From assembly GCA_964373955.1 (NCBI GenBank), contig CAYJXA010000006.1:1735-65734 (forward strand): a stretch of 64,000 nucleotides of DNA, given 5' to 3'. A program made the translations under genes and the position numbers. The notes below the pieces were generated by a model. The model did not search any database. It was not told where the DNA came from and was given only the letters and a program-made list of their open reading frames with translations. Shown one piece after another: positions 7,568-45,045 of this stretch. The DNA is from an uncultured Methanosarcinales archaeon (lineage in GTDB: Archaea; Nanobdellota; Nanobdellia; Woesearchaeales; GW2011-AR9). Numbering within the stretch: the first letter of the stretch is position 1; the number at the start of each line of letters is the position of its first letter.

Positions 7568-9243
7568 TGTAATCTCTTAACCATATACGGTCCTTCCTTT
7601 TCGTACCCTAATTTTTTATAATACTCTCGAACTCCCACGCCGGAGATAACCACCATCTTCTTCTTTCCGTGATCAAGAGCAATTGCCTCTGCTTTTTGCA
7701 TTAATCTTTTTCCCCAGCCTTTATGTTGCACTACTCCTTCCTCTCCAATAGCGGTAGCAGTACCATACACATGTAATTCCCGGATTAAAGCGCTGTCTTT
7801 GGTTATTTCTTCACGCAAATTCTCGAATGGGAAACGCAAACGGCAAAATCCAAGGAGAATATCCTGTTGTGGATCCTCTGCGGCAATAAAAAATTCTTTT
7901 CCTTTAGATGCTTCGTACTCTACGACTTTAATCTGGACATCATTCCAGTTTACTTTTTTTCCCAGCGGCTCACGACAGCGGATGCATCGGCATTTTGGTT
8001 TATACTTCTCATGGATAAATTGCCGGAAATTGGTTAAGCCAACCCCAGCAGACCAATACTTGGTAGGCACATCCCGCTGGATTCGCTGAATGCGGCAGTA
8101 TTCCGGCGTGTATTCTTTAATTGGTATTAATCGTTCGGCAGCTTCATCAGTGCTAATAGGCTCAAATTTGCCTTGCTTCCATTGCGCATATAATGCTGTT
8201 CCCGGCGCAACCATGGTGGGATAAAATTTAATCATATCCGGTCGGTATTCTGAATCATCAAACAGTTGTTTCATTCCAGCGATATCTCTCTCCCCATCAG
8301 TTAGAGGAAGCCCGGGCATGTAATGGAAATTTATTTTAAATCCTAAGTCCCGAAGAATTTGAATTGACTTCTTGGAATCAGCAGCAGTATGTCCCCGATG
8401 CGTATGAGCAAGAACATCATCATAGACGGATTCAATACCCAGTTCTACTCTGGTGCAACCCTGCTTTAGCATTTCGTTTCCATGCTGAAGAAATCCCCAA
8501 TCCGGCTTTGTTTCAATGCACAGAGCAACGCAGCGTACTTTAGCAATTTCATTACGGAGCTGCTCTTCTTCCAGTGTTGTGGTTGTCTTTTGTTTTAATT
8601 GGAATAATTTTTGATGCAATCTTGCCATTCGTTCTGCATCGTGCATCTCTCCAGGAAGTTCAAAGAATTCTTTGAATTCTTCTATCTTTACATTCCCTTC
8701 TCCATCAAAAAATAAATCCGAGAAATCATTTAAAGCTTTGAATGCTCCCCAGATGAATTCTTCCTGGTATTCTTTTGCGGTGGCTGGAAAGGTTCCACCC
8801 ATAATAATGAATTCTATTTTATCAATGGTGTGGCCAAGGAGAAGATATTGCTCCAATCGGTTGAAGGTCATCAAATAAGAATCGTAATTGTTTCTGATTC
8901 CTCTCATCGTAGCAGGTTCATGTCCTGTGTACGATTGAGGCACATCTCCCCAAGGACTGGCGATGCCTCCCGGGCAAAAAACGCATTTGCCGTGAGGACA
9001 TTTGCTCGGAGCAGTCATTAACGCGACTGGAGAAACTCCCGAGATTGTCCGCACTGGTTTGGTAAGGAGTTTCTTTTTGAGTAAGGGGAGATCTTCTTTC
9101 TGTGCATGGAGCAATATTTGAATATTGGAAGGAATAACTTTCTCTTTGTATTTGAGAGAGAGCTCTCGTTTTAAGGTGGAGAATTGCTTCTCGGAAAAAT
9201 TATTTTTTTTGAGTTCAGCGATGAGATCTTGGTAAATGCCCAT
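7564..9243 (-). CDS. elp3: ELP3-like radical SAM plus GNAT tRNA uridine(34) modification enzyme
   Basis: 559 aa. Radical-SAM Cys cluster (CPHGKCVFCPGG), C-terminal GNAT domain, typical archaeal ELP3 architecture. Confidence 0.85.
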   Translation of the reverse strand: MGIYQDLIAELKKNNFSEKQFSTLKRELSLKYKEKVIPSNIQILLHAQKEDLPLLKKKLLTKPVRTISGVSPVALMTAPSKCPHGKCVFCPGGIASPWGDVPQSYTGHEPATMRGIRNNYDSYLMTFNRLEQYLLLGHTIDKIEFIIMGGTFPATAKEYQEEFIWGAFKALNDFSDLFFDGEGNVKIEEFKEFFELPGEMHDAERMARLHQKLFQLKQKTTTTLEEEQLRNEIAKVRCVALCIETKPDWGFLQHGNEMLKQGCTRVELGIESVYDDVLAHTHRGHTAADSKKSIQILRDLGFKINFHYMPGLPLTDGERDIAGMKQLFDDSEYRPDMIKFYPTMVAPGTALYAQWKQGKFEPISTDEAAERLIPIKEYTPEYCRIQRIQRDVPTKYWSAGVGLTNFRQFIHEKYKPKCRCIRCREPLGKKVNWNDVQIKVVEYEASKGKEFFIAAEDPQQDILLGFCRLRFPFENLREEITKDSALIRELHVYGTATAIGEEGVVQHKGWGKRLMQKAEAIALDHGKKKMVVISGVGVREYYKKLGYEKEGPYMVKRLQ

Positions 9244-9343
9244 TATTTTTGATTATGAGTTAGCAGTTCTTTTATTAAAGTTTTCCATAGAAATTACTAC
9301 CTTTAAATGGTTCTTTGCTGAGTATTTCATTTTTGTAGAAATC

Positions 9344-9351
9344 TTTATAAA
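9344..9351 (+). promoter_or_regulatory. TATA-like box (tttataaa) 24-31 nt upstream of the rpl21e ATG (leaderless-type spacing)
   Basis: Sequence and spacing only. Confidence 0.3.
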
Positions 9352-9374
9352 TCACCCTCAAAATAAAGCATATC

Positions 9375-9665
9375 ATGGTACAGCGCATAGGAACACAGCA
9401 GCGGAAAACCAGATACAAGCTTAAAAGGCATTATCGGGAAAAAGGAAAAATACCTCTCAGCCGCTACTTTCAGGAATTTCAACTAGGGGAGAAAGTAAGC
9501 TTAAAGCTTAATTCCATTGTGCAAAAAGGCCGTTTCCATCCTCGTTTTCATGGACTGACGGGAACAGTAACCGGAAAAAAAGGATTCTGCTATGAAGTAA
9601 AAGTGACTGATGGTCAGAAAGAAAAGCGAGTGTTTATTCATCCCATTCATCTCTTAAAGGTGTAA
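9375..9665 (+). CDS. rpl21e: 50S ribosomal protein L21e
   Basis: ...RTRYKLKRHYREKGKIPLSRYFQEF...VQKGRFHPRFHGLTGTVTG matches the L21e consensus. Confidence 0.8.
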   Translation: MVQRIGTQQRKTRYKLKRHYREKGKIPLSRYFQEFQLGEKVSLKLNSIVQKGRFHPRFHGLTGTVTGKKGFCYEVKVTDGQKEKRVFIHPIHLLKV

Positions 9666-9668
9666 GCA

Positions 9669-10016
9669 ATGCCAAACCCACAATTCATTGAGGAGAAATC
9701 TCTCTGCTTAGTCGATGTGAAAGAAACGTTAAGCGATATCGAGAAGCGGGATGGACAGTTAAATTATCTTTCTACGAAAGTAAAAGACTACGTGGATCTT
9801 TTTGTTACTTTATCTCCGAAAAAGAAAGAAGAACTTCAGAAGAAACTAATGGACTTAAATTTAACCAGGCTGCGGGAAGACCATGTCGCTAAGATAATTG
9901 ACTTCCTTCCCACAACCGTGAATGATCTTAAGATAGTTCTTCAAGCCTACCCTTTGAGTATGCCCAAAAAGGATCAGGAAAGCATTGTTCAAGTAATCCA
10001 AGAGGTTGCAAAATAA
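9669..10016 (+). CDS. rpoF: DNA-directed RNA polymerase subunit F (Rpo4/Rpb4-like)
   Basis: 115 aa in the conserved archaeal position directly after rpl21e and before a DUF655 gene; helical Rpb4-like composition. Confidence 0.5.
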   Translation: MPNPQFIEEKSLCLVDVKETLSDIEKRDGQLNYLSTKVKDYVDLFVTLSPKKKEELQKKLMDLNLTRLREDHVAKIIDFLPTTVNDLKIVLQAYPLSMPKKDQESIVQVIQEVAK

Positions 10017-31234: not shown

Positions 31235-31696
31235 ATGGCAAGATTACTGGATAGTTTTTACAACGCTCTTCTGGGAGCAGGACTGCTAGGATTAGTTGCT
31301 TGCAGTACTCCAAGATATGCTCATCGTGATTATGATCAATTCCCCGCTGCGCGGCCAGAAATCGGACTTCATAACATAAAGCAAATTGCAGGTGATATTT
31401 GTGAAGAGTCAGCGGTAACGGAAGATGAATTTCGCTGCACAAAAAATGCCTCCATTCTCAGTAACAGATTTCCAGCAGAATGTCCAAATGGCTACACTCT
31501 TCAAGAAGGTACTTTGGGATACCAATCTTGCCGTCAGGAGATAGTCATTCTTTGGGATCGGGTAAGGAAAGTTATTCCCGGATCAAACCTTGTTGAAGTC
31601 TGCTTGGAGGATAGAACTTGCGTTCGATTGGAAAAGTTTAGAAACCGCCGACAAGCTCGGGAGTTTGCGGAAGCAATACACGCATATCTACAATAA
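31235..31696 (+). CDS. Small secreted lipoprotein-like Cys-containing protein, paralog A (divergent)
   Basis: Lipobox-like LGLVAC; conserved Cys spacing and C-terminal ...RQAREFAEAIHAYLQ shared with paralogs B and C. Confidence 0.5.
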   Translation: MARLLDSFYNALLGAGLLGLVACSTPRYAHRDYDQFPAARPEIGLHNIKQIAGDICEESAVTEDEFRCTKNASILSNRFPAECPNGYTLQEGTLGYQSCRQEIVILWDRVRKVIPGSNLVEVCLEDRTCVRLEKFRNRRQAREFAEAIHAYLQ

Positions 31697-31697
31697 A

Positions 31698-32162
31698 ATG
31701 GGAATTGATAATCTACTCGCGGCTGGGAAGAAAATTGCACTTGGTTTAGCGCTAAAAGTAGCGCTCACTTCGTGTGCAGGCGCACCAGTCTTGGCGCAGA
31801 AAAATTATGGCACTATGCCCGAGAGCCGCAGGAGAGGGGCGTATCAAGACATGGAGAGAATTCTTGCCGACATTTGTTGTTCATTGCCTTCAGACTCTTA
31901 TCCTGATTGTAAATATCTTCAAGTGAATCCGGTTGGATTCAGATGTGAACAGTTAGTTGATGCTCACATAGAAGTAGTTTCAGATTATCGTTGGGATGAG
32001 ATTGAGCAAGTAGAATGTCGAGGAAGAGAAGTTTTGATTCGAGGACAATACAACTCCAGTCCTTTATACACGAAAGGGCCAGTCTGGCAGGATACGACAC
32101 AACAATGCCGTGATTTGGCGGAAGCGATGCAGATAGTGGTAGAAGGAAGAAAAGGGAATTAA
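31698..32162 (+). CDS. Small secreted lipoprotein-like Cys-containing protein, paralog B
   Basis: ATG at 31698 (the track's 31590 start overlaps paralog A). ICCSLPSDSYPDCKYLQVNPVGFRCEQL...VECRGREVLIRGQYN...QQCRDLAEAM aligns closely to paralog C. Ends 3 nt before the convergent giant gene. Confidence 0.55.
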   Translation: MGIDNLLAAGKKIALGLALKVALTSCAGAPVLAQKNYGTMPESRRRGAYQDMERILADICCSLPSDSYPDCKYLQVNPVGFRCEQLVDAHIEVVSDYRWDEIEQVECRGREVLIRGQYNSSPLYTKGPVWQDTTQQCRDLAEAMQIVVEGRKGN

Positions 32163-32165
32163 TTA

Positions 32166-35100
32166 TTACCATCCCGCATTTCTGGTAACCTGTCCGCCTT
32201 GAACAGTACTTGCGGGAGCATTTCTTCCGGCATTGCCAAAGTTGGCTTCTCCAATGGAAGAAACGTCAACAGTGAAGCAGACATCGCCTATAGTGCTGGA
32301 TCCTGAAAATGAATCAGCAGTGGAAGGCGCTTGTTTCCATCCAATACACGCTTCTTGGAATAGGTTTGGTGAATAATGGATAATTGTATCTTTATCTGAT
32401 TGTCCGTTTCGTAATTCTATCGGTCCATTGACGTCTCCATTCCGAATATACATATGTGTTGCACCGGCATCAATTCCATCGTTAGGAGTAGTGTCAATCC
32501 ACACATTAAATGAAACAGCTACGCCATCTTCGTTAATGAAAGGAGTAAACGCTTCATCTCTCGGAGCGGAAACACCCCAGGTGATTTTATAGAAATATCC
32601 TTGTAATGGTGTGTCTTCATCCTGTTCTTGATCTCCATCTTCGTCTTTGTGACAGAAATTATTGTCTACACATACTTGCCCTGGATCACAGATGAATTCT
32701 TCTTCTGCTTCTGGATCTGGATTCCTGGCGCAAAGAATGGGGGAGGTAGTTTCAGACCGTTCCATTTGAATATTAGCAACGGCTTGATATGTTCCGGAAA
32801 CGGTTTTAATCATCGCCATTCCTTCCGGTTCTATGTCATAGTGGGCTTCGCAAATGGCAGAAGGGAACCAATTGCTTCCTAACATCGGAGCAAAGGTTTT
32901 ATCAGCATCGAATTGGAAAAGGTCTCGGTCTGTTCTGGGCAGTCCGAAGAGTCTGGTAAGTGCAGGATAGGATTTTATTTCTTTGGTTATGCCGTAAATT
33001 GCTTCGATGGAGGTTTGAGCGATAGCGAGCGAGCCTTGAGTTGCTACTCTGGTTTCTTCTAATGCCGGGGCACGTTCTCGAGCTGAGTCTTGAGCTTCCC
33101 GTCTTCTCTCCCCTAATTCCCGTTCTGCATCAGCTTCCGCTCTATGTGCTGCATCCAGTGCTGCGTCGGCAGCATCTACTTCCACTCGAGCAGCCCTTCT
33201 TGCGTCCTCGGTTGTTGCTGATGCTAACACTTCTCCTGCTTCTCCTACTCTCTTAACCTGTTCTGCGACAACTGCTGATGCTTGAACAGCCCTTTGTTCT
33301 GCTGCTTGTACCTGATTGTCATACGTATAAACCCATTGCTCACCTTGTTGTTTGTACGTTGTAATCCTTCCGTCTGAACTATGGGAAATGAAACCACCAG
33401 TATATTCTCCTTTCTCATTCCGTTGCGCAAGAATAGAGGTTCCATCGGGCTGGGTGATTCCTTCAAAACGCCCTGTAGCCGGGTTAAACATCTCGATACG
33501 TTCCAGACCACCTAACTCTGCTTCGGTTCGTCGGGGAAATTCAACTCCGGCCACCCGAGTTATTCGTGCTGTTCCTCCCTGGACTTCCACTGCTCCTACG
33601 CTTACGCCAATTCCTGCACTGCCGATACTCTCATAATCGTAATTCAATAAGAATAAAGCATTTTCATTTGCATCGTATAAAGTTCCGCCGCTGGGTCTGA
33701 AGCAGCCGTTTGAGTCGGTACAGCTACTTTCTCCTTTGGCATAATAATCACCATCGAGAACTTGTTTCTCACTCGTTTGCGTGTTGAAGATTGTTTGCGT
33801 TTCTTCCTTGAAATTAGTAATAGTTCGACTATTGCCTTGGACTGCGATTACTCCCAATTGGTTTTTGGCGTCAGCACCCTCATAATATTTCACTACTTTT
33901 CCTGATGCGAGGTCGTTGAGAGCATCCTTGTTATCTTTCCCAACGTAAAATGGATTTCCACTGAGGGTAATTGTTCCTTCTTCTTGTTGTTTAAGGGATT
34001 GGAAGGCAACCTGTTGGCCGTTTCTAATGACGTATGTTCCGGATTTGTCTTGATCTGGTTGATCTTTATCTTTTAATTGGATGATGGTAGACTTTACGGG
34101 ATCTCTGCCAACGGTAACCGTTGTTGCCACCTTTATCGTGCCTCCTGTTTTGAGAACATAATTAACGGGATCTGATTTATCCCAATCTATTTGGCTTTCA
34201 CCGTAAGTTTTATAGAGTTCTTCTCCTAATGCCCGTTGTGCTATCTCTCTGATGGAAACTACTCTCGCACCTTCCGTAGTGGGACTGGTTGTTAAGTAAG
34301 GAGCCACGCTTCCTTCCACATAAAAATAATATCCTTTTTCTGTTTCGTAAGTTCCATCAGCTTTTCTGATAACGTGGGGAGCAGATGAAAGTGATGTCGA
34401 ACTAGAAGTACCTGTTCTATCTCCAGATATGGTTAAAGTAGTTATGCTCTGCGCAAGAATAGCTTGTCGTAAAGCTTCTCCTTCTGCTCCAATGTTTTGT
34501 CCGTATCTTACCTTGTTAAGTCCATCATCGTCTGAATACCCTATTGGCATACCGGAGGAATCAATATATATTACACGGCTGTGGTCGGAATCATAGTAGC
34601 TTACGGCGTATTGGATCCCATCGATCTCTCCGCTCTCCTCAATTAGGATGTAACGACGAGATTCTCCACTGCCCGGGAGTTGAAATGAAATCTCTGGAAT
34701 AGGAGTATCAAATGTCCCTGAATCGGAAGCAGGTGAGGAGTCGTCTATTTGCTGGAATATTTGCAGTGCTGTTGTACCTGTATATTGTTGTTCAGAGAAA
34801 TCATCATTCTTAAACAAAAGCTTAAGATTTCCATTCTCTTCAGTAATTGAGAACTCTAAAGTTCTCGTACTTAACCCTGATGGATCGAAATCAACCCTTT
34901 CTCCGTTCGGGAAGACGAGGTTAGTCCCTTCTATCCTAATATTCATCTGTTGCATTAATGCCTGAGCTCGGGGTGTTATTTGAGGGATTATATGTTCAGG
35001 CGGGTTACTAACAGAAGAGGGATTAAAACTATCTCTTGCTCCTCCCTTGAAATAATCATGAAGTACAAAGCTCTGTTGATCGGCACTGGAAGAAGTGTAA

Positions 35101-35231
35101 CACCCTGTTCTACTTCTGCAAATCCAACGGGAGTTCATGCTATCATATTCCCATCCATTCACCGGCACTGCACTCACCATCATAGCACTTGCTAGTAAAA
35201 ACAATACCAATAAAGTCACCATCTTTTTCAT
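32166..35231 (-). CDS. Giant secreted protein 1 (1021 aa): signal peptide, YD-like repeats, Ala/Arg/Glu-rich helical linker, Cys-containing C-terminal domain
   Basis: Signal peptide MKKMVTLLVLFLLASAMMVSA. YD-like segment (...GEYTGGFISHSSDGRITTYKQQGEQWVYTYDNQ...). Long charged helical stretch (AARVEVDAADAALDAAHRAEADAERELGERRREAQ). C-terminal roughly 250 aa with conserved Cys. Confidence 0.65.
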   Translation of the reverse strand: MKKMVTLLVLFLLASAMMVSAVPVNGWEYDSMNSRWICRSRTGCYTSSSADQQSFVLHDYFKGGARDSFNPSSVSNPPEHIIPQITPRAQALMQQMNIRIEGTNLVFPNGERVDFDPSGLSTRTLEFSITEENGNLKLLFKNDDFSEQQYTGTTALQIFQQIDDSSPASDSGTFDTPIPEISFQLPGSGESRRYILIEESGEIDGIQYAVSYYDSDHSRVIYIDSSGMPIGYSDDDGLNKVRYGQNIGAEGEALRQAILAQSITTLTISGDRTGTSSSTSLSSAPHVIRKADGTYETEKGYYFYVEGSVAPYLTTSPTTEGARVVSIREIAQRALGEELYKTYGESQIDWDKSDPVNYVLKTGGTIKVATTVTVGRDPVKSTIIQLKDKDQPDQDKSGTYVIRNGQQVAFQSLKQQEEGTITLSGNPFYVGKDNKDALNDLASGKVVKYYEGADAKNQLGVIAVQGNSRTITNFKEETQTIFNTQTSEKQVLDGDYYAKGESSCTDSNGCFRPSGGTLYDANENALFLLNYDYESIGSAGIGVSVGAVEVQGGTARITRVAGVEFPRRTEAELGGLERIEMFNPATGRFEGITQPDGTSILAQRNEKGEYTGGFISHSSDGRITTYKQQGEQWVYTYDNQVQAAEQRAVQASAVVAEQVKRVGEAGEVLASATTEDARRAARVEVDAADAALDAAHRAEADAERELGERRREAQDSARERAPALEETRVATQGSLAIAQTSIEAIYGITKEIKSYPALTRLFGLPRTDRDLFQFDADKTFAPMLGSNWFPSAICEAHYDIEPEGMAMIKTVSGTYQAVANIQMERSETTSPILCARNPDPEAEEEFICDPGQVCVDNNFCHKDEDGDQEQDEDTPLQGYFYKITWGVSAPRDEAFTPFINEDGVAVSFNVWIDTTPNDGIDAGATHMYIRNGDVNGPIELRNGQSDKDTIIHYSPNLFQEACIGWKQAPSTADSFSGSSTIGDVCFTVDVSSIGEANFGNAGRNAPASTVQGGQVTRNAGW
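35173..35219. repeat. Direct repeat copy 1 (47 bp, 45/47 identical to 35911..35957)
   Basis: ctcaccatcatagcacttgctagtaaaaacaataccaataaagtcac. On the minus strand it encodes VTLLVLFLLASAMMVS of the giant protein 1 signal peptide. Confidence 0.9.
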
Positions 35232-35581
35232 GATCTCTTTTCCAGCAACGTTTTAATCTTCTCTATTCTCTTTTTTAATGGAGGAAGATCTTTTTTCACA
35301 ATATCCCACACCACATCCAAATCAAGGTTGAAGTAAGCGTGGATCATCCTATCACGAGTTCCAGCAATCTTTTTCCACTCTATTTCAGGATGAGACTCCT
35401 TTAAATCGGAAGAAATATTCTTTACAGCTTCCCCGATAATTTCAATCCGTCGTATAGTTGCATCTTTGGCATCTTTTGCTTCCTCAAATTCTTTTCGAGA
35501 TAATTTTTTTATCGACTCTTCGATATCGTTAATGGCATCAAGGATATGCAGTAAATAAGGAAGATTTCGGTGGACAGTCAT
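35228..35581 (-). CDS. hepT: HepT-like (DUF86) RNase toxin
   Basis: ...IGEAVKNIS...HPEIEWKKIAGTRDRMIHAYFNLDLDVVW matches the HepT/DUF86 signature (Rx4HxY). 4-nt overlap with the downstream giant gene start. Confidence 0.7.
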   Translation of the reverse strand: MTVHRNLPYLLHILDAINDIEESIKKLSRKEFEEAKDAKDATIRRIEIIGEAVKNISSDLKESHPEIEWKKIAGTRDRMIHAYFNLDLDVVWDIVKKDLPPLKKRIEKIKTLLEKRS

Positions 35582-35868
35582 AAAATCCTCACCTCATCCT
35601 TTAGAATATATTCTTTTAGATAAGGGCTTACTCCCCGATAACTAACCAAATCTACTCTTTTACCTAATTTTTTTTCCAATTCCAGTTGAAGACCAAAGAA
35701 TTCAAATCCCATGCCTTTGCGTGGTTCGATGATAATATCAACATCGCTGGTGCTCCTATGCCTACCTCTAGCGTAACTGCCAAATATGCCGGCTCTCTTA
35801 ATATGATGCTTTCGAAGCACTTCTACCACGTTTTTCTTAATTAACTCAAAATCCGGTCTTTTTTTCAT
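35578..35868 (-). CDS. mnt: MNT-type nucleotidyltransferase antitoxin
   Basis: GIFGSYARGRHRSTSDVDIII nucleotidyltransferase motif; 4-nt overlap with hepT. Confidence 0.7.
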   Translation of the reverse strand: MKKRPDFELIKKNVVEVLRKHHIKRAGIFGSYARGRHRSTSDVDIIIEPRKGMGFEFFGLQLELEKKLGKRVDLVSYRGVSPYLKEYILKDEVRIL

Positions 35869-35910
35869 ATCAGCCTCACTTCCCCATGGTAGCTCTCTCT
35901 TGCTTTAATG

Positions 35911-35957
35911 CTCACCATCATAGCACTTGCTAGTAAAAACAATACTAATAAGGTCAC
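35911..35957. repeat. Direct repeat copy 2 (47 bp)
   Basis: ctcaccatcatagcacttgctagtaaaaacaatactaataaggtcac. Lies inside a 70-aa TTG-initiated remnant ORF (35865..36077) whose stop overlaps the mnt start. Confidence 0.9.
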
Positions 35958-36141
35958 TGTCTTCGCGGGAAAATCCGGGAGATTTTCAGCGCACCCAAAA
36001 TAACCTCTTTTTATGTATTCCACAGTAAAATGTAATTCCTCTTGCTTTATATTCTTTACTATGAGATAAGAGACCAATTATATTCACTCCCAAGTAAAAA
36101 CGAGGGAAACTTTTAAAAATAACCACCCCCTGAACAAGTGC

Positions 36142-36549
36142 ATGGCGTTAACGGACATACTTAGGTCAGCGGTTCTAGGTGTTTTTCTTTCTTGTGCTGG
36201 ACCTACTTTAGCTACGAGACCATATACCTCTGCTGCTAACCCTCAGGAAAGTGCGTATCTTAACATGAGAGATATTCTTATTGATCTCTGCTGCCAATCG
36301 TTAACTGATTCTTACCCAAAGTGTAAACATTTTGAAATTGATCAACGCGGATTTAGCTGTGAGCAGCTCTTGTTTGGGCAGGGCATGAATCCTACGGCTT
36401 TTACGTGGGGTGAAATTCAGGATGTCCAATGCCGGGGAAACCGCTTAAATATTAGCGGGGAATACAATAACGACTTCATTGCTGCTAAAACTGATCGTCA
36501 ATGTCAGGATTTAGCGGGAGCGATGAGAAAGTACTTGCGATTGGAATAA
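36142..36549 (+). CDS. Small secreted lipoprotein-like Cys-containing protein, paralog C
   Basis: Lipobox-like VFLSCAG. DLCCQSLTDSYPKCKHFEIDQRGFSCEQL...VQCRGNRLNISGEYN...RQCQDLAGAM. Ends 2 nt before the convergent giant gene 2. Confidence 0.55.
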   Translation: MALTDILRSAVLGVFLSCAGPTLATRPYTSAANPQESAYLNMRDILIDLCCQSLTDSYPKCKHFEIDQRGFSCEQLLFGQGMNPTAFTWGEIQDVQCRGNRLNISGEYNNDFIAAKTDRQCQDLAGAMRKYLRLE

Positions 36550-36550
36550 C

Positions 36551-39500
36551 TTAGAGTACGCTCTCGCAATAACTTAATCCGCCTTGTTCTAAATCATCAG
36601 CGATAGTAATTATAAATGACACGGTTCCTTCAATCCAGTCTATGACATCCCAGAGGAAGTATAATAGGTTACATGCTGAAGAGAGAGTTCCTGAAACAGC
36701 ACAACTAATTCCACATCCTAAAATAGTGGCCGTGTGCGCTAAAGCGAGAGGATCTTTTAAAGCATTACGCAATAGATTAATTATTCCATCGTAGAACTGT
36801 GAAAAAGGCAGGATGTACCACAATTCGCCAATAAAATACTTGCACGTAAGCAGTCCTTCCAACTCACTGCAGCTCTCCACTGTGGCAAGATTTGCTTTGA
36901 CTTCATTCTCCAAACAATAAATTTTTCGACACTTGATTTGTCGATATTTGTCTAAATTATGAACTAACCCCGGTACACAGAGTGCGGCTATCGAGAGATA
37001 CAAATTATCATACACGCTCCGTGCCGGCTTCCATGCTTGCTGATCCTTCCCTAAGGGGGAAGTGGGACTTTTTAATATTTCAATGTTCATGAGTTGATTA
37101 TATTTTTCAGGAATCGCCCCCACCCAGGTGTCATACCACCCCAGGCCAGTATCCGCTTTACAAGATAGAATACTGAGTGGTACTGAAAGGGCTGTTGCAG
37201 CAGTGTCAGCAGTATCAACAGCTCCATTCATTCCCAGGCAAGTTGCAATCATGGAGCCGGAGGCGGGGGTTTCCCGGAGAATATTATCTGTTCCTGATTC
37301 TAGTGCATTTACAATTTTGGCTGCTCCAATAATAACAGTAGCAATCCCGGCAATATACCTCAACCACTTAATAATTTTCTCGAGCGTTCCAATGACTCCC
37401 CAGAATCCAGTGCTGGCGGCTTCTCGTTCGTTTTTAATTATCTCTTCCAAATTAGCATCAGGAGCGCCCAAAGTTGAAAAGCCAAAGGGAACACTCACCG
37501 TTACTTCCTGCAGTTCCGCTCTAGCAAGAGCATTTCCGTCAACGGCAGAAAAGATTTGGAAGGTACACATATAACCCACTTCTCGAGTGGTAAATTCTTC
37601 TCCGCCAGTTTCTGCCAAATTAAACAGAGCTACCCCGTCAAAGGGCTCAAACTCCAGCACAATCTTTGGTCGGGGAGAAGTGTCTCCTTGCGGACTTACA
37701 CCCGCGTACAGAAGTGCCCTGCTTACAACGGGAGTGGGCAATACAGTAGGAGTTGCGTTTTGATCTAATCTCCCTCCGGGAGGAGCAGCTGTTTGTTGTT
37801 GCGTCGGAACACATTCCCTCAATTCAATGTTTACTGCTTCTGCCGTTGTTCCTGATTTTTCCAAGCGGATTTCAAAAGGCATTCGCGTATAAGTAAGAGG
37901 AGCGATATCTAAATCAATGAAGTTACTGAGTCCTCCCAGCGGAACAACTCGGCTTACTTCCCAATAATCTGGATTTTCTTCAAGGCTCAATCCTAAGAGA
38001 TCAAAAGTCAGGGTGCCTTTACTATTTTGCACTGCACTCCACTCTACGTTCTTTGCGTCCGTAGGCCAAGAGTTTGCATCATTTCCAGCAGTATCTTGAA
38101 TTCTGATATCCACCCTTACTCCTCGCTCGGGGCCACTTTTGATCGGGTCCGTTATTATTTCGCAGTCCCATGCTCCGCCTTCCGCTCTTTCACAACTCTG
38201 TTCACTAAAAACTTGCCAGCCCGTTGTGGGTGAAATATCCCGGGTAAATTCATTCTCCGGAAATAAGGTTTCAGCATCCATGATGAGATCATTTGCGTTC
38301 ACTAGAATGGTGAGTCCACTACTTTCTAACGCTTTGAATTTGATTTTGAGCCGGTCATTGCTTTGGAAGTAATCTTTATCTCCAACATCGGAAACTCCAT
38401 ACGCTTCCATGGTTTCTACTTTTGGTCCAGTGGTATCTACCGCCAGTTCCAATTCTGGCTTCTCGGCCTCATTTCCAACATTATCTTCGAATTTTGAAAG
38501 CCCTATTCTGGCTACGCCGTCAGAACTAAATGTTTTGCTGGTATCCCAATAGCAACTGAAAATGGAAAGAGTTTGATTGCAAAAGGTAGGCGCTTCGGAA
38601 GAGCTCCTTCCCAGTGCATCCAGATTTGCCCTGATGCCATTTGCAGTTATTCCTGCTCCTTGCTCATCTACTGCTAACAATATCCGTTGATTGCCACTCT
38701 TTACGTAACTTTTCCCTTCAAACATCCGTTCGGTGCCAAAGAACTGTATTCGGGGAAGGGAAGTATCGCGAGTAAAACTTTCTACCAAATTCCGCTCGGC
38801 AATATTTCCAAATTCATCTTCGGCTATTATTTGCACTGAGATAGAATTCTCTCGGGGATTTACTTCCACATTGCGCCATGCACAATGCCACACTCCCACT
38901 TCGTCGGGATCTTCATCACAATCTGCTTCCTCTCCATTCAATGATGCTAATCCAGAATATCCTTTTACTACCGGAATACTTGATTCAACAATATCAAGAG
39001 TAATATCTGTTCTGGTAACAAAATTTCCCACGAATTGTCCAAAGGCAGTAAAATTAAGATTATCTTGAATTGCCGGCGCCACAAAATCAATGGGAAAACT
39101 TTGAATGGCAGATGTTCCGCTATGCCCTAGCCAATCCTGAGCTCGTATTTTTATTCGTTGTACTTGCTGCCCGGATAAACTTGCCTGGAGAATTCCCGAA
39201 AATTGCCCATCATTGAGATAATTATATTCTCGCCTTCCGGGAGCATCGATACTTATGGTTTGGAGGACGTTTCCAGTATCAGGATCAACCATCTCGATTG
39301 TCTTTATGCCCACCGAAGGGGCTCCCGACGCAATGCTATCATCAACGGTAAAATCAAGTTGGATTTTTCCTTCGCTATTCTGGCGAACATCGTGAATCTG
39401 TATTCCCGGAGCAGAACCATCCGATCTGATCACTTCTCCGTTAGAAACGGAATCAGGAACGCTTAGAGCATTGAGAAAATTATAAATGACTTGGAAGGCA

Positions 39501-39844
39501 TATTCCGCTTCGCTGATTCCATCGGTTAAGGGACTAATATATTCACAGGTTGCTCCCAGGGCAGTTTCCGTGCAGGAAGTGAAGTCAGCTTCGTTTGCTC
39601 CGATCTTAATTTTAACATCATTGGGATTGATGGCTCTATCCGGAACCCCGCTAATGGTTGCTTCAACTGTCCAAGTATCACCTTGAGCGTCGAGATATCC
39701 TCGAATTCCTGCTTCTCCTGAATTTTTGGTTATTTGAACGGAAGCAGCAAGCGCATCCGCGGAATAAACGGGAATACTAATGACTAAGGCAATGATGAAA
39801 AGTCCAACAATACTCCATCCTCTTTGAGGGTTCATCTCATCCAT
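36551..39844 (-). CDS. Giant secreted protein 2 (1097 aa) with signal peptide and about 300-aa hydrophobic Cys-rich C-terminal region
   Basis: N-terminal signal sequence GLFIIALVISIPVYSADA. Long beta-rich ectodomain. C-terminal region with several hydrophobic segments and many Cys. Start overlaps the upstream gene's end by 8 nt. Confidence 0.65.
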   Translation of the reverse strand: MDEMNPQRGWSIVGLFIIALVISIPVYSADALAASVQITKNSGEAGIRGYLDAQGDTWTVEATISGVPDRAINPNDVKIKIGANEADFTSCTETALGATCEYISPLTDGISEAEYAFQVIYNFLNALSVPDSVSNGEVIRSDGSAPGIQIHDVRQNSEGKIQLDFTVDDSIASGAPSVGIKTIEMVDPDTGNVLQTISIDAPGRREYNYLNDGQFSGILQASLSGQQVQRIKIRAQDWLGHSGTSAIQSFPIDFVAPAIQDNLNFTAFGQFVGNFVTRTDITLDIVESSIPVVKGYSGLASLNGEEADCDEDPDEVGVWHCAWRNVEVNPRENSISVQIIAEDEFGNIAERNLVESFTRDTSLPRIQFFGTERMFEGKSYVKSGNQRILLAVDEQGAGITANGIRANLDALGRSSSEAPTFCNQTLSIFSCYWDTSKTFSSDGVARIGLSKFEDNVGNEAEKPELELAVDTTGPKVETMEAYGVSDVGDKDYFQSNDRLKIKFKALESSGLTILVNANDLIMDAETLFPENEFTRDISPTTGWQVFSEQSCERAEGGAWDCEIITDPIKSGPERGVRVDIRIQDTAGNDANSWPTDAKNVEWSAVQNSKGTLTFDLLGLSLEENPDYWEVSRVVPLGGLSNFIDLDIAPLTYTRMPFEIRLEKSGTTAEAVNIELRECVPTQQQTAAPPGGRLDQNATPTVLPTPVVSRALLYAGVSPQGDTSPRPKIVLEFEPFDGVALFNLAETGGEEFTTREVGYMCTFQIFSAVDGNALARAELQEVTVSVPFGFSTLGAPDANLEEIIKNEREAASTGFWGVIGTLEKIIKWLRYIAGIATVIIGAAKIVNALESGTDNILRETPASGSMIATCLGMNGAVDTADTAATALSVPLSILSCKADTGLGWYDTWVGAIPEKYNQLMNIEILKSPTSPLGKDQQAWKPARSVYDNLYLSIAALCVPGLVHNLDKYRQIKCRKIYCLENEVKANLATVESCSELEGLLTCKYFIGELWYILPFSQFYDGIINLLRNALKDPLALAHTATILGCGISCAVSGTLSSACNLLYFLWDVIDWIEGTVSFIITIADDLEQGGLSYCESVL

Positions 39845-42258: not shown

Positions 42259-45045
42259 TTAGAAGATCCTAGAACCGTCTTTAACTCCATGGCAAATGAC
42301 CTCTTCCACTTTGCTTGCTAACTTTTTTCCTTCAAAAAAGACTCGTCCGCCACGAACGAATAATTCTAATTTTTTAAATTCTTCAAAGGTGACTTCTTTG
42401 TGACTGTTCTCCACTCCTTCGAAATGGACTTCTTCCCCGATCTTCGTTTTCTTCACTTCCAATGGAGCGACATTTTCGCGATCATCTCCCACCATAATCA
42501 TCGCTTCGGAAAGTTCCCCTCTTATTTTTGCAGGTTTCATGTTGGCACAGAAAACCACTTGTCTATTGAGCAAAAGGTCTTTAGGAATGGACTTCTTCAG
42601 TCCTGCCACTACTTGTTTTTTTCCCAGTTCCGGGCCTAAATCTACCTGCAGGAGGTATAAGCTGTCCGCATTAGGATGATCTTTCACTGCCAGGATCTTG
42701 CCTACCACTAAATACAGTGGAAATAATCGTATCTGCATCGTTGGAAGAAGTTTATACTCTCCACCATTATATTTGGTGATCAATTCGCACGCTCTCTGAA
42801 CTGCTTGTTCCATCTCTCTTTCGCTAATCTTAGTATTCCCAAAGGCAACCAAGACTAAGTTTGTCGAGTCGATAGTTGTTATAGTCTGTTTGCATTGCTT
42901 TGAAAATCTTCCGATAATCTTTTTCTTATCTGAATACACTATTTCTCCTTCTTTTAGCTTTTCGGTGGTTCCATCGAGTGATAAGAAGGACTCTCCCTCC
43001 CTGCAGAAGCGAACCTCTATATCCTCATCTAATTTAGAAAGGTCGTGGGTGGCCATGGCTATATTGCTCTCAACAGAGACGGCATTATAAAGATCAACAA
43101 CAGTATTTATTTGTGGTAATTTCCCTTTCTCACGAATTAGTTTGATGAGGTTTATAACAGCATTGGGATTTTTTCTAGAATCGACTCCAGTTTTACGATC
43201 TATGTTGGCATACTCCTCTAAAATCTCATGTCGTTCGTAGTTAGCAATATTCTTCCGGACTTCATCTTTTATTCTTTCTATTCCCTCATGTTTTTTCTTA
43301 ATGTGTACGCCACTTAGTTGAGCTACTCGTACTTTAACTCCCATCTCTTCAATGACAGGATCTACGGAATACCTGACGACTCTTACTTCTTCCGTAGTGT
43401 GGGGGGGAGTTCCCACCTCAATTTTTTCTACTAGTTTTGCAGTCGGTTTGACCTTTCCTTTCCAGTTAAAAGATAAACCATCCCAATCCCACTGTTCCTT
43501 CCCCACTGCTGCTTGAATCTTTGCAGAAAAAGCAGGAAGAATAGGGGAGACCATAATTCCCAAATCTCTTGCTACGTTTACACACCACCCCACCGCTGCT
43601 TTGTTTACAGCGTTCTGGGGATCTTTCCAGACTTCTGATTTCTGAAAATAAGCATTGCCCAAATCTGCAATTTTTAAAATATTTTTTACTGCCCCTTTAA
43701 AGTCTTCTAGGAAATAATTCTTTCTAATTTCTTCGATGAGAGATTTAATTTGTACAGTTATCTCTTGGTTTTCTGCAATAGTAGTGATGGAAGCATAATT
43801 CTTCTCCGCAAACGTCAGCACCCTATAACAGAAGTTCCCAACATTTCCCATTAAGACGTTGTTATTCAGAGCAATGAAGTCATTAAAATTTAAATCCACA
43901 TCAATCACTCTTCGATCCAAATGGCTCGCGTAAAAGAATCGCAATGATTCTGCGGGATATAACTTCAAAAAATCTTTTGCAGTGAAGAAGGTTCCCCTGC
44001 TTTTGCTCATCTTCTGCCCGTCAACGGTAATGAATCCATGCACCGTGAGCGCTGGCAAAGGAATATTCATGGCCATGAGCATTGCTGGCCAAAATAAGAA
44101 ATGGAAATAAGAAATGTCCTTGCCAATGAAGTGGTGTACTTTGCCTTTAATCCAGTACTCTTCCCATTTTACTTTCTTCCGATCACAATAATTTTTCGTT
44201 GAAGAAATGTAGCCGATGGGTGCATCCATCCACACATAAAAATACTTAACTTCCCCGGTTTCATCTTTGCTGCCGGGAATTTCAAAGCCAAAATAAGGAG
44301 CATCCCGGGAAATACACCAGTCTTCCAATCCTTTCGTTATCCATTCTTTCAGCCAATTGCGCACTTCCGGCTGTAAATGCGCAGTAGGAGAAGTTATCCA
44401 TTGTTCTAATCTCTTAGAAAAAGCACTTAATTTGAAAAAGTAATGCTCGCTTTCCTTCTGGATTGGTGTTCTCCCACAGAGAGCACATTTTGGATTGATG
44501 AGATCGTTCCCCTTCAAGACGCTGCTGCAGCTCTCGCAAACGTCTCCATATTGATCCAGGGTGGTGCAGTAAGGGCAGGTTCCTTTAACATAACGGTCTG
44601 GCAAGGAACGGGCGCAGTGCTCGCAGTAAATTACATTAATTTTTTTTGTGGAAATGTACCCTTGTTTTTTAAGCTCGGTAAAAAAATGTTCCGCCAGTTC
44701 TTTGTTCTCAGGTGAATGGGTTTTGTAATAATTATCAAATTGAATTAGAAAAGAAGCAAAATCCTGCTGATGATCTTTCCAAAACTCATTGGCGAACTTT
44801 TCCGGATCCTTTTTTGCTTTGGCAGCATTTACTTCGATGGGAGTGCCATGCATATCGGAAGCGCAAATGTAAAGTGCATCTTTTCCTTGCAATTTGAGGA
44901 AGCGAGTGTAGATATCTGCCTGGATGTATTCTAAAAGATGGCCGATATGGATAGGACCATTAGCGTAAGGGAGAGCAGCAGTAACTATAATTTTTTCATC
45001 CTTTTTTGTACTGTTTTTTTTGCCGGTTGCCGCTGCTTTCTTCAT
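42259..45045 (-). CDS. metG: Methionyl-tRNA synthetase with extended C-terminus (B3/4-like plus EMAP/Trbp111-like tRNA-binding domains)
   Basis: HIGH-type motif PYANGPIHIGH, KMSKS, Zn knuckle CEHC...CPYC. C-terminal ...VAVKDHPNADSLYLLQVDLG... OK-fold tRNA-binding motif. An extra roughly 200-aa module between them. 928 aa in total. Confidence 0.8.
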   Translation of the reverse strand: MKKAAATGKKNSTKKDEKIIVTAALPYANGPIHIGHLLEYIQADIYTRFLKLQGKDALYICASDMHGTPIEVNAAKAKKDPEKFANEFWKDHQQDFASFLIQFDNYYKTHSPENKELAEHFFTELKKQGYISTKKINVIYCEHCARSLPDRYVKGTCPYCTTLDQYGDVCESCSSVLKGNDLINPKCALCGRTPIQKESEHYFFKLSAFSKRLEQWITSPTAHLQPEVRNWLKEWITKGLEDWCISRDAPYFGFEIPGSKDETGEVKYFYVWMDAPIGYISSTKNYCDRKKVKWEEYWIKGKVHHFIGKDISYFHFLFWPAMLMAMNIPLPALTVHGFITVDGQKMSKSRGTFFTAKDFLKLYPAESLRFFYASHLDRRVIDVDLNFNDFIALNNNVLMGNVGNFCYRVLTFAEKNYASITTIAENQEITVQIKSLIEEIRKNYFLEDFKGAVKNILKIADLGNAYFQKSEVWKDPQNAVNKAAVGWCVNVARDLGIMVSPILPAFSAKIQAAVGKEQWDWDGLSFNWKGKVKPTAKLVEKIEVGTPPHTTEEVRVVRYSVDPVIEEMGVKVRVAQLSGVHIKKKHEGIERIKDEVRKNIANYERHEILEEYANIDRKTGVDSRKNPNAVINLIKLIREKGKLPQINTVVDLYNAVSVESNIAMATHDLSKLDEDIEVRFCREGESFLSLDGTTEKLKEGEIVYSDKKKIIGRFSKQCKQTITTIDSTNLVLVAFGNTKISEREMEQAVQRACELITKYNGGEYKLLPTMQIRLFPLYLVVGKILAVKDHPNADSLYLLQVDLGPELGKKQVVAGLKKSIPKDLLLNRQVVFCANMKPAKIRGELSEAMIMVGDDRENVAPLEVKKTKIGEEVHFEGVENSHKEVTFEEFKKLELFVRGGRVFFEGKKLASKVEEVICHGVKDGSRIF

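Follow-up and report, generated by a model that had tools for sequence, protein, structure and literature searches.

A MntA/HepT-type toxin-antitoxin cassette between direct repeats at the 5′ coding end of a secreted-protein gene in a DPANN-like archaeon

Integrative elements and prophages are bounded by attL and attR direct repeats of tens of bases, usually at tRNA genes, and the target gene is kept intact by a copy of the gene end that the element supplies (discussed in PMC2853133). IS1634 of Mycoplasma, to which PMC2853133 refers (its ref. 83), is a transposon that makes variable target duplications, from tens to hundreds of bases.

Restriction-modification (RM) systems without other mobility genes are flanked by variable long target duplications of 30 to about 420 bp (PMC2853133; PMC3874152). 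[quoted passage not shown] Gene fusion at the junction and amplification of RM systems through their flanking repeats have been reported as well (PMC2853133). Toxin-antitoxin (TA) pairs of the MNT-HEPN kind are known for their high mobility, and closely related strains differ by recent gains or losses of them (Makarova et al. 2009, PMC2701414). Tn3-family transposons and plasmids can carry TA pairs (PMC7157771), and HepT/MNT pairs, too, travel on classical mobile elements. In type VII MntA/HepT systems the toxic HepT is neutralised through AMPylation by MntA; the signature motifs are GSX10DXD (MntA) and RX4HXY (HepT) (Yao et al. 2020, PMC7641770). The papers on MntA/HepT report nothing on flanking target duplications or on insertion into the 5′ end of a gene (PMC7641770; PMC2701414), and no paper on long target duplications around TA pairs was found in the searchable literature library.

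The repeat pair and the cassette

The window, that is, the whole 64-kb stretch of DNA that was analysed, carries the following features at the locus, all on the minus strand.

36046..36053, minus strand: candidate archaeal TATA box AATATAAA, from a pattern scan (inference only)
35865..36077, minus strand: remnant leader ORF, predicted, of 70 aa (TTG at 36077) or 52 aa (GTG at 36023)
35911..35963, minus strand: R1, upstream copy of the duplicated segment, with 49/53 identity to 35173-35225
35226..35910, minus strand: inserted cassette of 685 nt (42-nt leader, mnt, hepT and 2 nt past the hepT stop), delimited by sharp homology ends
35578..35868, minus strand: mnt, MntA-type antitoxin, minimal nucleotidyltransferase of 96 aa (PF18765, 3e-13; PF01909, 5e-11)
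35228..35581, minus strand: hepT, HepT/DUF86 HEPN RNase toxin of 117 aa (PF01934, E 2.3e-29, 102 bits, full-length)
35272..35279, minus strand: possible TATA-like element ATTAAAAA within hepT, at its 3′ end (7/8 match to TTTAAAAA)
35173..35225, minus strand: R2, downstream copy, giant-gene codons 3-20, signal-peptide h-region (49/53 match; family N-termini)
32166..35231, minus strand: giant secreted-protein gene of 1021 aa, from the ORF list, whose ATG overlaps the hepT stop (ATGA)

A first-pass annotation had described two 47-bp direct repeats, identical at 45 of 47 positions and both coding for residues 5-20 of the 1021-aa protein, with exactly the mnt-hepT pair between them, and each of these statements was reproduced. 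The segments 35173-35219 and 35911-35957 are separated by 691 nt, share 45/47 positions and encode on the minus strand VTLLVLFLLASAMMVS, which corresponds to residues 5-20 of ORF 32166..35231. Ungapped extension lengthens the repeat to 53 nt (35173-35225 and 35911-35963), with 49/53 identity and 685 nt between the copies, around an exact core of 35 nt (35173-35207 = 35911-35945). The core is the longest direct repeat at 200-5000 nt spacing in the 64-kb window, where the runner-up has 16 nt; it occurs exactly twice in the window and had no match in 100 dinucleotide shuffles of it. Outside the window, a codon-degenerate pattern for VTLLVLFLLASAMMV had no match in the JGI metagenomes. A third, decayed copy at 36085-36101 was considered and rejected as not significant.

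The homology between the two flanks ends abruptly at both cassette borders. Directly after R1 there is cassette sequence, and the sequence of the mature protein is absent there. The present start of the giant gene, ATGAAA, lies outside the repeat, so that the duplicated segment does not include the start of the gene. All 4 mismatches between R1 and R2 fall within the first 18 of the 53 nt (~1% by chance) and 2 of the 4 are synonymous, a clustering more in keeping with a pair of alleles that had diverged than with a fresh duplication decaying evenly. No Pfam family matched the giant protein. Its 217 homologues, collected by exhaustive HMMER search, share a common C-terminal region of ~300 aa, with a best identity of 53%, and present N-termini of the form MKKxVxxLVLFLLxSS...AQ. 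Since these homologues begin with the same kind of signal peptide, MKKxVxxLVLFLL, R2 is predicted to be the functional copy; R1 is, as far as can be read from its sequence, a non-functional remnant of the signal-peptide coding region.

Between the repeat copies, mnt and hepT are the only ORFs with a family match. They are arranged in the order mnt to hepT with a 4-nt overlap, and both motifs are intact (GS-YARGRHRSTS-DVD in MNT; RDRMIHAY in HepT). Judged by Pfam matches and motifs, the pair is a bona fide MntA/HepT-type module, as the first reading had named it. Compared with MntA/HepT type VII (PMC7641770; PMC2701414), it has the same PF01909 and PF01934 pair, with the antitoxin first, the 4-nt overlap, the same motifs and sizes of 96 and 117 aa; the activity of the pair in the window is a prediction. 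The 96-aa MNT is a bare nucleotidyltransferase, in which no DNA-binding domain was found by Pfam. HepT has 754 homologues, the best with 81% identity, and the few named top matches belong to Woesearchaeota or Nanoarchaeota. The closest HepT relatives, L082 (81%), L083-85 (76%) and L086-89 (71%), are all encoded 0-4 nt upstream of genes with secreted- or membrane-protein-like starts. The host of the secreted-protein gene is a DPANN-like archaeon; its archaeal nature is shown by matches to Elp3, NreA and CDC48/PAN-type proteins.

No recombinase, integrase or transposase family match was found by Pfam in the 685-nt insert; the repeat search found no inverted repeat pairing the cassette ends; and, with regard to an integron gene cassette and its attC site, no imperfect palindrome was seen at the cassette 3′ end, 2 nt past the hepT stop. 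The four neighbouring ORFs tested had no Pfam match, and the window had no tRNA or other Rfam match. The G+C content of the cassette (37.7%) is at the 9th percentile of same-size stretches and its GC3 is equal to that of the giant gene; composition is thus no marker of foreign origin, and the proposal of a foreign composition was rejected.

Three ATGA overlaps link the remnant ORF, mnt, hepT and the 1021-aa gene, of 4 nt each for mnt/hepT and hepT/giant gene, in full agreement with the chain of stop/start overlaps noted before. The leader ORF runs through R1 into the cassette and stops in the ATGA over the mnt start. GGAG is found 9 nt before its TTG, and its alternative GTG at 36023 is in frame, ~27 nt downstream of the TATA-like box. 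This box (36046..36053) is probably the original promoter of the giant gene, and it would now drive the remnant ORF as well as mnt and hepT, and the giant gene perhaps too. The internal TATA-like element lies ~44 nt upstream of the giant-gene ATG and could drive the giant gene alone; if it is active, the gene would not depend on read-through. The pattern scan found no TATA-like 8-mer in the 42-nt cassette leader (35910 to 35869), and a bacterial promoter/terminator scan was uninformative for an archaeon. The description of the module as "stress-responsive" in the first-pass annotation found no support, given an MNT without DNA-binding domain and the lack of a TATA-like element before mnt inside the cassette. 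It is more likely that the module borrows the promoter of the host gene than that it controls the giant gene.

Comparison with described mobile systems and with other toxin-antitoxin loci

Furuta et al. (2010) selected flanking direct repeats of >30 bp around an insert of <20 kb with a complete module, without mobility genes and without a tRNA/att-type target; their screen also called for a repeat that is not dispersed over the genome and for a related genome with an empty target and one repeat copy. In the window, the repeat has 53 nt with a 35-nt exact core and two copies in the 64 kb; the insert has 685 nt and includes mnt and hepT; and there are neither mobility genes nor a tRNA/att-type target. 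As in RM insertions, a small addiction module without integrase, transposase or terminal inverted repeats is bracketed by a locus-specific target repeat (30 to about 420 bp for RM systems, 53 nt here), and the repeats often overlap the ends of neighbouring genes. On the other hand, the cargo is an RNase/AMP-transferase TA pair and not a DNA-cutting RM system, with no breakage activity known for it; the host is an archaeon, whereas no archaeal case passed the screen of Furuta et al.; and what was targeted is a gene's 5′ coding end, presumably with promoter capture and a new start codon. In addition, empty sites are available for RM insertions, while the footprint in the window is known from the filled locus alone.

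Integrative elements have an integrase and one fixed att sequence, whereas here there is no recombinase and the repeat differs per locus. A site-specific integrative element was therefore rejected, since the insert has no recombinase and the repeats of different loci are unrelated. IS1634-type transposons have a transposase and defined ends, and the cassette has neither; a classical IS or transposon was rejected on the lack of a transposase match and of terminal inverted repeats, together with a duplication length that varies from 24 to 222 nt across loci. Unlike the TA pairs of Tn3-family transposons and plasmids, the pair in the window has no mobile-element gene within or adjoining the cassette.

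The same footprint was found around other TA pairs. An exact, locus-specific flank repeat of at least 20 nt accompanies 12/64 MNT-HepT pairs from other genomes and 15/2240 shifted control intervals of the same size (odds ratio 34, Fisher p 9e-13). These repeats extend to 24-222 nt at 88-100% identity, and the insert size is 642-761 nt in 10 of 13 inserts. They are ends of intact neighbouring genes, different at each locus; the Pfam-confirmed sources include the 3′ ends of adenine deaminase, glutathione peroxidase and AlaRS genes. At L020 the repeat consists of the first 15 codons of a SpoU methylase gene (Pfam-confirmed), and the geometry is the same as in the window. In at least three of the eight control-positive loci (L017, L032 and L062), the repeats bracket other TA pairs, namely HEPN+NTase, RelE+HTH, HicA, DUF4160+DUF2442 and DUF4258+DUF2283, and at L050 a further repeat brackets a MazF/PemK gene. 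The footprint is thus general, and further TA families present at these loci have it too.

The L048-type locus was found with the footprint on at least 24 ENA and JGI contigs. Plasmid pAQ7 of PCC 7002, a finished genome, has a 92-nt flanking repeat around its cassette, and no empty relative of it was found. Picosynechococcus PCC 7117 and 7003 present the same cassette in the same place with the downstream copy absent, which indicates that a flanking copy can arise after primary insertion. In an AR13-like archaeal lineage the duplicated segment ranges from 57 to 349 nt and a unit of small gene plus TA is tandemly repeated, a pattern that would fit unequal crossing-over as well as insertion. Some 1,400 plasmids of enterobacteria also carry a HepT/MNT pair; inspection of two regions with the MNT/DUF86 pair showed recombinase and IS genes as neighbours and no flanking repeats.

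Origin of the arrangement

We propose, at a probability of about 0.6, that the locus results from the transposase-free acquisition of a selfish two-gene addiction module, with the 5′ coding end of the secreted-protein gene as the site of an insertion with long target duplication. The first-pass annotation had already suggested an insertion or recombination with duplication of the target, and this suggestion is backed by the many MNT-HepT pairs with the same footprint and by the RM precedent. Illegitimate recombination would have linked linear DNA with little beyond the TA operon to the target at two staggered breaks, which may have lain on two copies of the chromosome or at a replication fork that had broken; the stretch between the breaks would thereby be left on both sides of the insert. 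The upstream copy would have stayed with the old promoter and the old start and become a dead-end leader ORF terminating at the start codon of mnt, while the downstream copy would have kept the signal peptide intact. The new start of the giant gene, ATGAAA, which overlaps the hepT stop, would have been supplied by the terminal bases of the acquired DNA. Transcription starting at the host promoter near 36050 may then cover the leader ORF, mnt and hepT and, to some extent at least, the giant gene, with the reading frames handed on via ATGA overlaps. We hypothesize that selection against losing an addiction module keeps such long duplications in place, as the module would be excised by recombination between the copies.

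A comparison with related genomes had been recommended to find an empty, single-copy site, and no close relative of the locus and no such site were found in the searched collections. No relative of the giant protein exceeds 53% identity, and this best homologue is too distant for a comparison of the junctions. The word-indexed search with the giant protein recovered only the giant protein itself; exact look-ups of HepT and of the giant protein for further contigs gave no match; and look-ups of MNT and of a neighbouring 135-aa protein gave only one 1.4-kb Logan contig, identical to the window. The Logan contig ERR3478686_6315614 is 100% identical to window positions 36647..35238, covers the upstream copy and the cassette and ends 13 nt short of the downstream copy; it may derive from the same reads as the source contig. 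Viral contigs gave only two distant matches. Empty sites of the comparison loci were not found in the searched collections either: for the L048-type locus, each of five look-ups centred on its 96-aa gene showed the cassette. Only the second cassette, TA2, differs in this respect: L094 has it and L095 does not. The direction of the event is inferred, neither the window nor the comparison loci having offered an empty site; so are the route and the co-transcription.

A possible, though less likely, variant is the import of the cassette together with an allelic gene start, through homology-assisted illegitimate recombination or a Campbell-type single crossover. The cassette would already have abutted an orthologous gene (hepT-ATGAAA-AAGATGGTG...) in a related strain; the right junction would come from homologous recombination inside the signal-peptide segment or further downstream, and the left junction from illegitimate joining just after the copy of the recipient, so that R1 would be the recipient allele and R2 the donor allele. 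The present start MKKMVTLLVLFLL, contiguous with hepT, matches the family consensus as this variant expects; however, a great many genes of these AT-rich genomes begin with ATGAAA (MKK), which makes the match weak evidence. The variant is also favoured by the position of the closest HepT relatives (L082, L083-85 and L086-89) 0-4 nt before secreted- or membrane-like gene starts, by the mismatches at the 5′ side of the repeat, two of them synonymous, and by the mosaic haplotypes L094 and L095, which are identical up to the cassette border and 89% identical past it. Yet it requires a donor lineage that is absent from every searched collection, and it amounts to a sub-route to the insertion footprint, not to an event of another type.

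A local tandem duplication or unequal crossing-over of the cassette plus gene start, followed by loss of one cassette copy, is improbable. The AR13-like lineage does have tandem units of the 96-aa gene plus TA, with partly deleted copies; the downstream copy of PCC 7002 is missing from the sister strains; and RM amplification through flanking repeats is known (PMC2853133). For the window, however, two events would be needed, with a deletion end exactly at the cassette border, and the best local alignment between the 178 nt upstream of R1 and the cassette reached only p about 0.04-0.19 in shuffles. The repeats at other loci, which are ends of unrelated housekeeping genes around a single cassette, would also be left unexplained.

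It is very improbable that the upstream ORF is a working gene, such as a small membrane peptide or a translated leader acting as third component or regulator of the module, whose common 50 nt would result from selection or gene conversion and not be an insertion scar. Its 70 open codons, the GGAG 9 nt before the TTG and the ATGA end on the mnt start would agree with such a role, as would the AR13-like lineage, where a 96-aa membrane-protein gene always precedes the TA pair and is duplicated with it. Against this, the 35-nt exact DNA identity to the neighbour gene points to duplication rather than to a family of its own, no Pfam family matched the ORF, and the closest cassettes, L082 and L083, are without any such ORF. 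An assembly artefact, in which the metagenome assembler misjoined paths at a short repeat, is hardly credible: the source is indeed a metagenome-assembled contig and the Logan contig stops 13 nt short of the second copy, but the copies are not alike in their 5′ parts and are bordered by four flanks, each distinct and unique, so that only one path uses each flank once, the left junction was reproduced by another assembler, and, for other loci, a finished genome and many independent assemblies show the same architecture.

Significance for toxin-antitoxin mobility

The insertion with long target duplication proposed here bears on the mobility route of chromosomal TA pairs, which are exceptionally mobile (PMC2701414) yet mostly without mobility genes. 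The window offers a clear-cut case, from an archaeon, of a footprint that had until now been linked with RM systems, and the comparison set suggests that this footprint is common, in about one in five MNT-HepT pairs and in several other TA families. If RNase-type TA pairs have this footprint as well, the DNA breakage by the inserted RM system that Furuta et al. suggested cannot explain it fully. The question moves to host repair and to selection against excision, both of which are testable. In practice, short "orphan" ORFs annotated beside TA pairs may be duplicated gene ends.

Tentatively, and with more doubt than confidence, long target duplications may be regarded as a general scar of host-driven, transposase-free uptake of short foreign DNA in bacteria and archaea, visible almost solely around RM and TA systems, with TA cassettes spreading as bare operons. 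If this is true, the scars would be visible almost solely around addiction modules because excision between the copies is selected against there, and TA cassettes would rely on the promoter, at times on the start codon as well, of the gene in which they landed. An insertion of this type can rewire the gene that it hits: in the window, the start of the 1021-aa secreted protein overlaps the stop codon of a toxin gene, and the leader ORF would be the former start. In DPANN archaea, TA cassettes would, on this tentative reading, have been repeatedly wired before large, fast-evolving surface-protein genes.

Anatomy of the duplicated gene start

The two 47-nt repeats reported in the first-pass annotation, identical at 45/47 positions, were reproduced, and the alignment extends to 53 nt. 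On the minus strand, 35963..35911 and 35225..35173 are identical at 49/53 positions, ungapped, with an exact core of 35 nt. This core occurs twice in the window against 0 occurrences in 100 shuffles, and the repeat is by far the longest direct repeat at 200–5000 nt spacing in the 64 kb (runner-up, 16 nt). All four mismatches lie within the first 18 nt of the repeat, and two are synonymous. Both copies encode VTLLVLFLLASAMMVS, which in the reading frame of the downstream copy corresponds, as had been claimed, to residues 5–20 of the 1021-aa protein.

Features of the locus:
32166-35231 (-): giant gene, 1021-aa secreted protein
35173-35225 (-): R2, downstream repeat copy
35228-35581 (-): hepT, 117-aa ORF within the cassette, PF01934 HepT-like, E 2e-29
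35578-35868 (-): mnt, 96-aa ORF within the cassette, PF18765/PF01909
35911-35963 (-): R1, upstream repeat copy
35865-36077 (-): 70-aa ORF containing R1
36142-36549 (+): small Cys-rich gene

R1 and R2 are separated by 685 nt, and the Pfam matches confirm the mnt-hepT pair between them. The nucleotidyltransferase (MNT) carries GS-X10-DVD and HepT carries RDRMIHAY, corresponding to GSX10DXD and RX4HXY, the defining signatures of AMPylating MntA/HepT pairs (PMC7641770). No recombinase genes were found in the cassette, nor inverted repeats pairing its ends. The three ATGA overlaps previously noted are present and chain the 70-aa ORF, mnt, hepT and the giant gene, for which a single operon with translational coupling is plausible. 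The Logan assembly of run ERR3478686, possibly built from the same reads, confirms the left junction, with 100% identity over 36647..35238, and stops 13 nt short of the second repeat copy.

A Pfam search of the giant protein returned no domain. Its family comprises 217 proteins with a common C-terminal region of ~300 aa and with N-terminal signal peptides that follow the type MKKxVxxLVLFLLxSS..AQ; for this reason R2 is regarded as the working signal peptide and R1 as the remnant. Elp3, NreA and CDC48/PAN-type matches indicate an archaeal host, and the few named organisms among the best HepT relatives are Woesearchaeota or Nanoarchaeota.

The cassette lies in the divergent region between the giant gene and the small Cys-rich gene 36142..36549 (+). 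The motif CC..L.DSYP.CK....(N/D)..GF.CEQL is common to the small Cys-rich proteins at 31235-31696 (+), 31590-32162 (+) and 36142-36549 (+). Two of these genes converge on a giant secreted-protein gene (32166-35231 (-) and 36551-39844 (-)), ending 1–3 nt from its stop, and the tail-to-tail module of giant and small gene thus recurs in the window; none of these presented a Pfam match. Elsewhere, the 928-aa methionyl-tRNA synthetase (42259-45045 (-)) contains a B3/4 domain (PF03483), whose usual home is PheRS beta, between the anticodon-binding region and the C-terminal tRNA-binding domain.

A pattern scan found no TATA-like element in the 42 nt preceding mnt. A candidate TATA box, AATATAAA, is located at 36053-36046, ~27 nt upstream of an in-frame GTG at 36023, a spacing that fits a leaderless archaeal mRNA. 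The TATA-like ATTAAAAA within hepT (35279-35272) could provide a separate promoter for the giant gene. The suggestion that the giant gene is under stress-responsive toxin-antitoxin (TA) control found no support. On the opposite strand, the near-palindromic TTTTTAAAAG at 36110-36119 precedes the small gene's ATG (36142, +) by 26 nt, which fits a leaderless transcript; if it serves that gene, the divergent region would hold two back-to-back promoters.

Flanking repeats around mnt-hepT pairs

A genome scan with HepT yielded 80 loci, spread over highly diverse bacteria and archaea, with 64 usable mnt-hepT pairs. In 12/64 pairs, the two 300-nt flanks, upstream and downstream, had an exact direct repeat of 20 nt or more in common, compared with 15/2240 control intervals of the same size, obtained by shifts along these loci (odds ratio 34; Fisher p 9e-13, indicative only since the intervals overlap). 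The repeats of an Archaeoglobaceae contig (L034) were left out of these statistics; they form a CRISPR array at ~7960-9970, with 23–28-nt matches at ~64-nt spacing, 3 kb from the MNT-HepT pair.

With mismatches allowed, the repeats of the comparison loci measure 24–222 nt at 88–100% identity, and the insert has 642–761 nt in 10/13 of them. At its upstream border the cassette starts 1–100 nt ahead of mnt; at the other border it mostly extends no further than ~30 nt from the hepT stop, a distance that reaches ~50 nt in two loci. The repeats are unrelated from locus to locus, each being the end of an intact neighbouring gene; Pfam-confirmed sources are the 3′ ends of adenine deaminase, glutathione peroxidase and alanyl-tRNA synthetase. 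In a Patescibacteria locus (L020) the repeat is taken from a SpoU methylase gene, of which it comprises the start codon and first 15 codons, and the geometry is that seen in the window. Inspection by eye of the comparison loci revealed no common end motif or junction microhomology.

Among the eight control-positive loci, at least three (L017, L032, L062) have other TA pairs bracketed by repeats: HEPN+NTase, RelE+HTH, HicA, DUF4160+DUF2442 and DUF4258+DUF2283. In L050 a further repeat brackets a MazF/PemK gene.

Other two-gene TA-like cassettes between locus-specific direct repeats of 20–266 nt:
L017: 5801-6706
L032: 1686-2421, 3707-4664, 7700-9042
L050: 1724-2540
L062: 6271-7038

The nearest HepT relatives are those of L082 (81%), L083-85 (76%) and L086-89 (71%), and all these cassettes lie 0–4 nt upstream of genes with secreted- or membrane-protein-like starts. 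In L086 the first 14 nt (ATGAAATCAAAGAA) are identical in mnt (2484-2497) and in the gene after hepT (3143-3156), spaced by exactly one cassette length, and MNT begins with the first codons of the host gene (MKSK), suggesting a short target duplication that takes in the start codon.

Dozens of contigs sample an AR13-like Nanoarchaeia lineage whose cassette has a 96-aa membrane-protein gene on one side and a 1454–2138-aa Big_13/Laminin_G surface-protein gene on the other. After hepT, haplotype L090 carries a copy of 57 nt from the 3′ end of the 96-aa gene, and L095 the whole of that gene again (349 nt at 92%); the two haplotypes are 100% identical over 2278 nt, starting with the final 55 nt of the gene. 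Haplotype L094, which has an extra second cassette (~74% identical), matches L095 at 100% for 3292 nt and then at 89%. The break (3292/3293) coincides exactly with the stop codon of the gene preceding the cassette, which indicates replacement of giant surface-protein alleles with break points at TA borders. These haplotypes therefore show that different assemblies reproduce the footprint, that the length duplicated differs inside a single lineage, and that recombination breaks at cassette borders. This lineage also has tandem repeats of ~100 nt in 2 to 5 copies, the number varying among contigs, in the stretch that separates the second cassette from the giant surface-protein gene:
L094: 4020-4264
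L099: 1244-1686

In the finished genome of Picosynechococcus PCC 7002, plasmid pAQ7 (L110), mnt-hepT is flanked by copies of ~92 nt from the 3′ end of a VWA gene. The downstream copy (1838-1926) starts 22 nt inside hepT and provides its last codons; unique sequence and an IS4 element come after it. As a caution, sister strains PCC 7117 and 7003 have the cassette in this position but lack the downstream copy.

Origin of the arrangement

Insertion with target duplication, as first proposed for this locus, is the best explanation, supported by the flank statistics and by analogy with restriction-modification (RM) systems rather than by an empty site, that is, a single repeat copy without the cassette. 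The core has two copies in the window, and a codon-degenerate pattern of the repeat peptide gave zero matches in JGI metagenomes; no empty site was obtained in relatives, JGI metagenomes or contigs with the neighbouring gene. The nearest giant-protein homologue has 53% identity, and the neighbouring gene was found on no further contigs.

We propose that illegitimate recombination linked a DNA piece little larger than the TA operon to staggered break points at the 5′ end of the giant gene, which would have duplicated ~50 nt of it. The old promoter of the giant gene, for which the TATA box at 36053-36046 is the candidate, would now transcribe the leader ORF through R1, and next mnt and hepT; the giant gene would have kept its signal peptide via R2, starting at an ATG from the last bases of the insert. 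Long duplications would normally be expected to disappear through recombination between copies, and those around RM and TA modules may persist because loss of an addiction module is harmful.

The cassette may instead have been imported together with an allelic gene start, as suggested by the confinement of the mismatches to one end of the repeat, by two of them being synonymous and by the MKK start of the giant gene being contiguous with hepT, although ATGAAA starts are so common in these genomes that the latter carries little weight. Tandem duplication followed by deletion is possible and has parallels in the AR13-like and PCC 7002 cases, but it requires two precise events, and the upstream flank of R1 has no convincing similarity to the cassette. 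It is conceivable that the upstream ORF encodes a functional peptide, but the 35-nt DNA identity favours a scar. Mis-assembly is unlikely, since all four flanks of the two copies are distinct and the copies themselves diverge in their 5′ parts.

Precedent and meaning

Insertion with long target duplication was identified by Nobusato et al. (2000) and extended by Furuta, Abe and Kobayashi (2010) to RM systems of types I–IV in several bacterial phyla, with long, variable duplications of 30 to ~420 bp and without other mobile elements; no archaeal case survived their screen (PMC2853133). A 2013 review ascribed this mode to RM systems only (PMC3874152). Recent insertions of MNT-HEPN that distinguish close strains were noted by Makarova et al. 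(2009), who made no mention of repeats (PMC2701414), and our literature search found no report of long target duplications around toxin-antitoxin pairs. The footprint in the window is the same as that of RM systems, but the cargo is a TA pair, the host an archaeon and the target a coding 5′ end. This instance would extend insertion with long target duplication in these three respects, and it suggests a testable general rule for the spread of TA cassettes.
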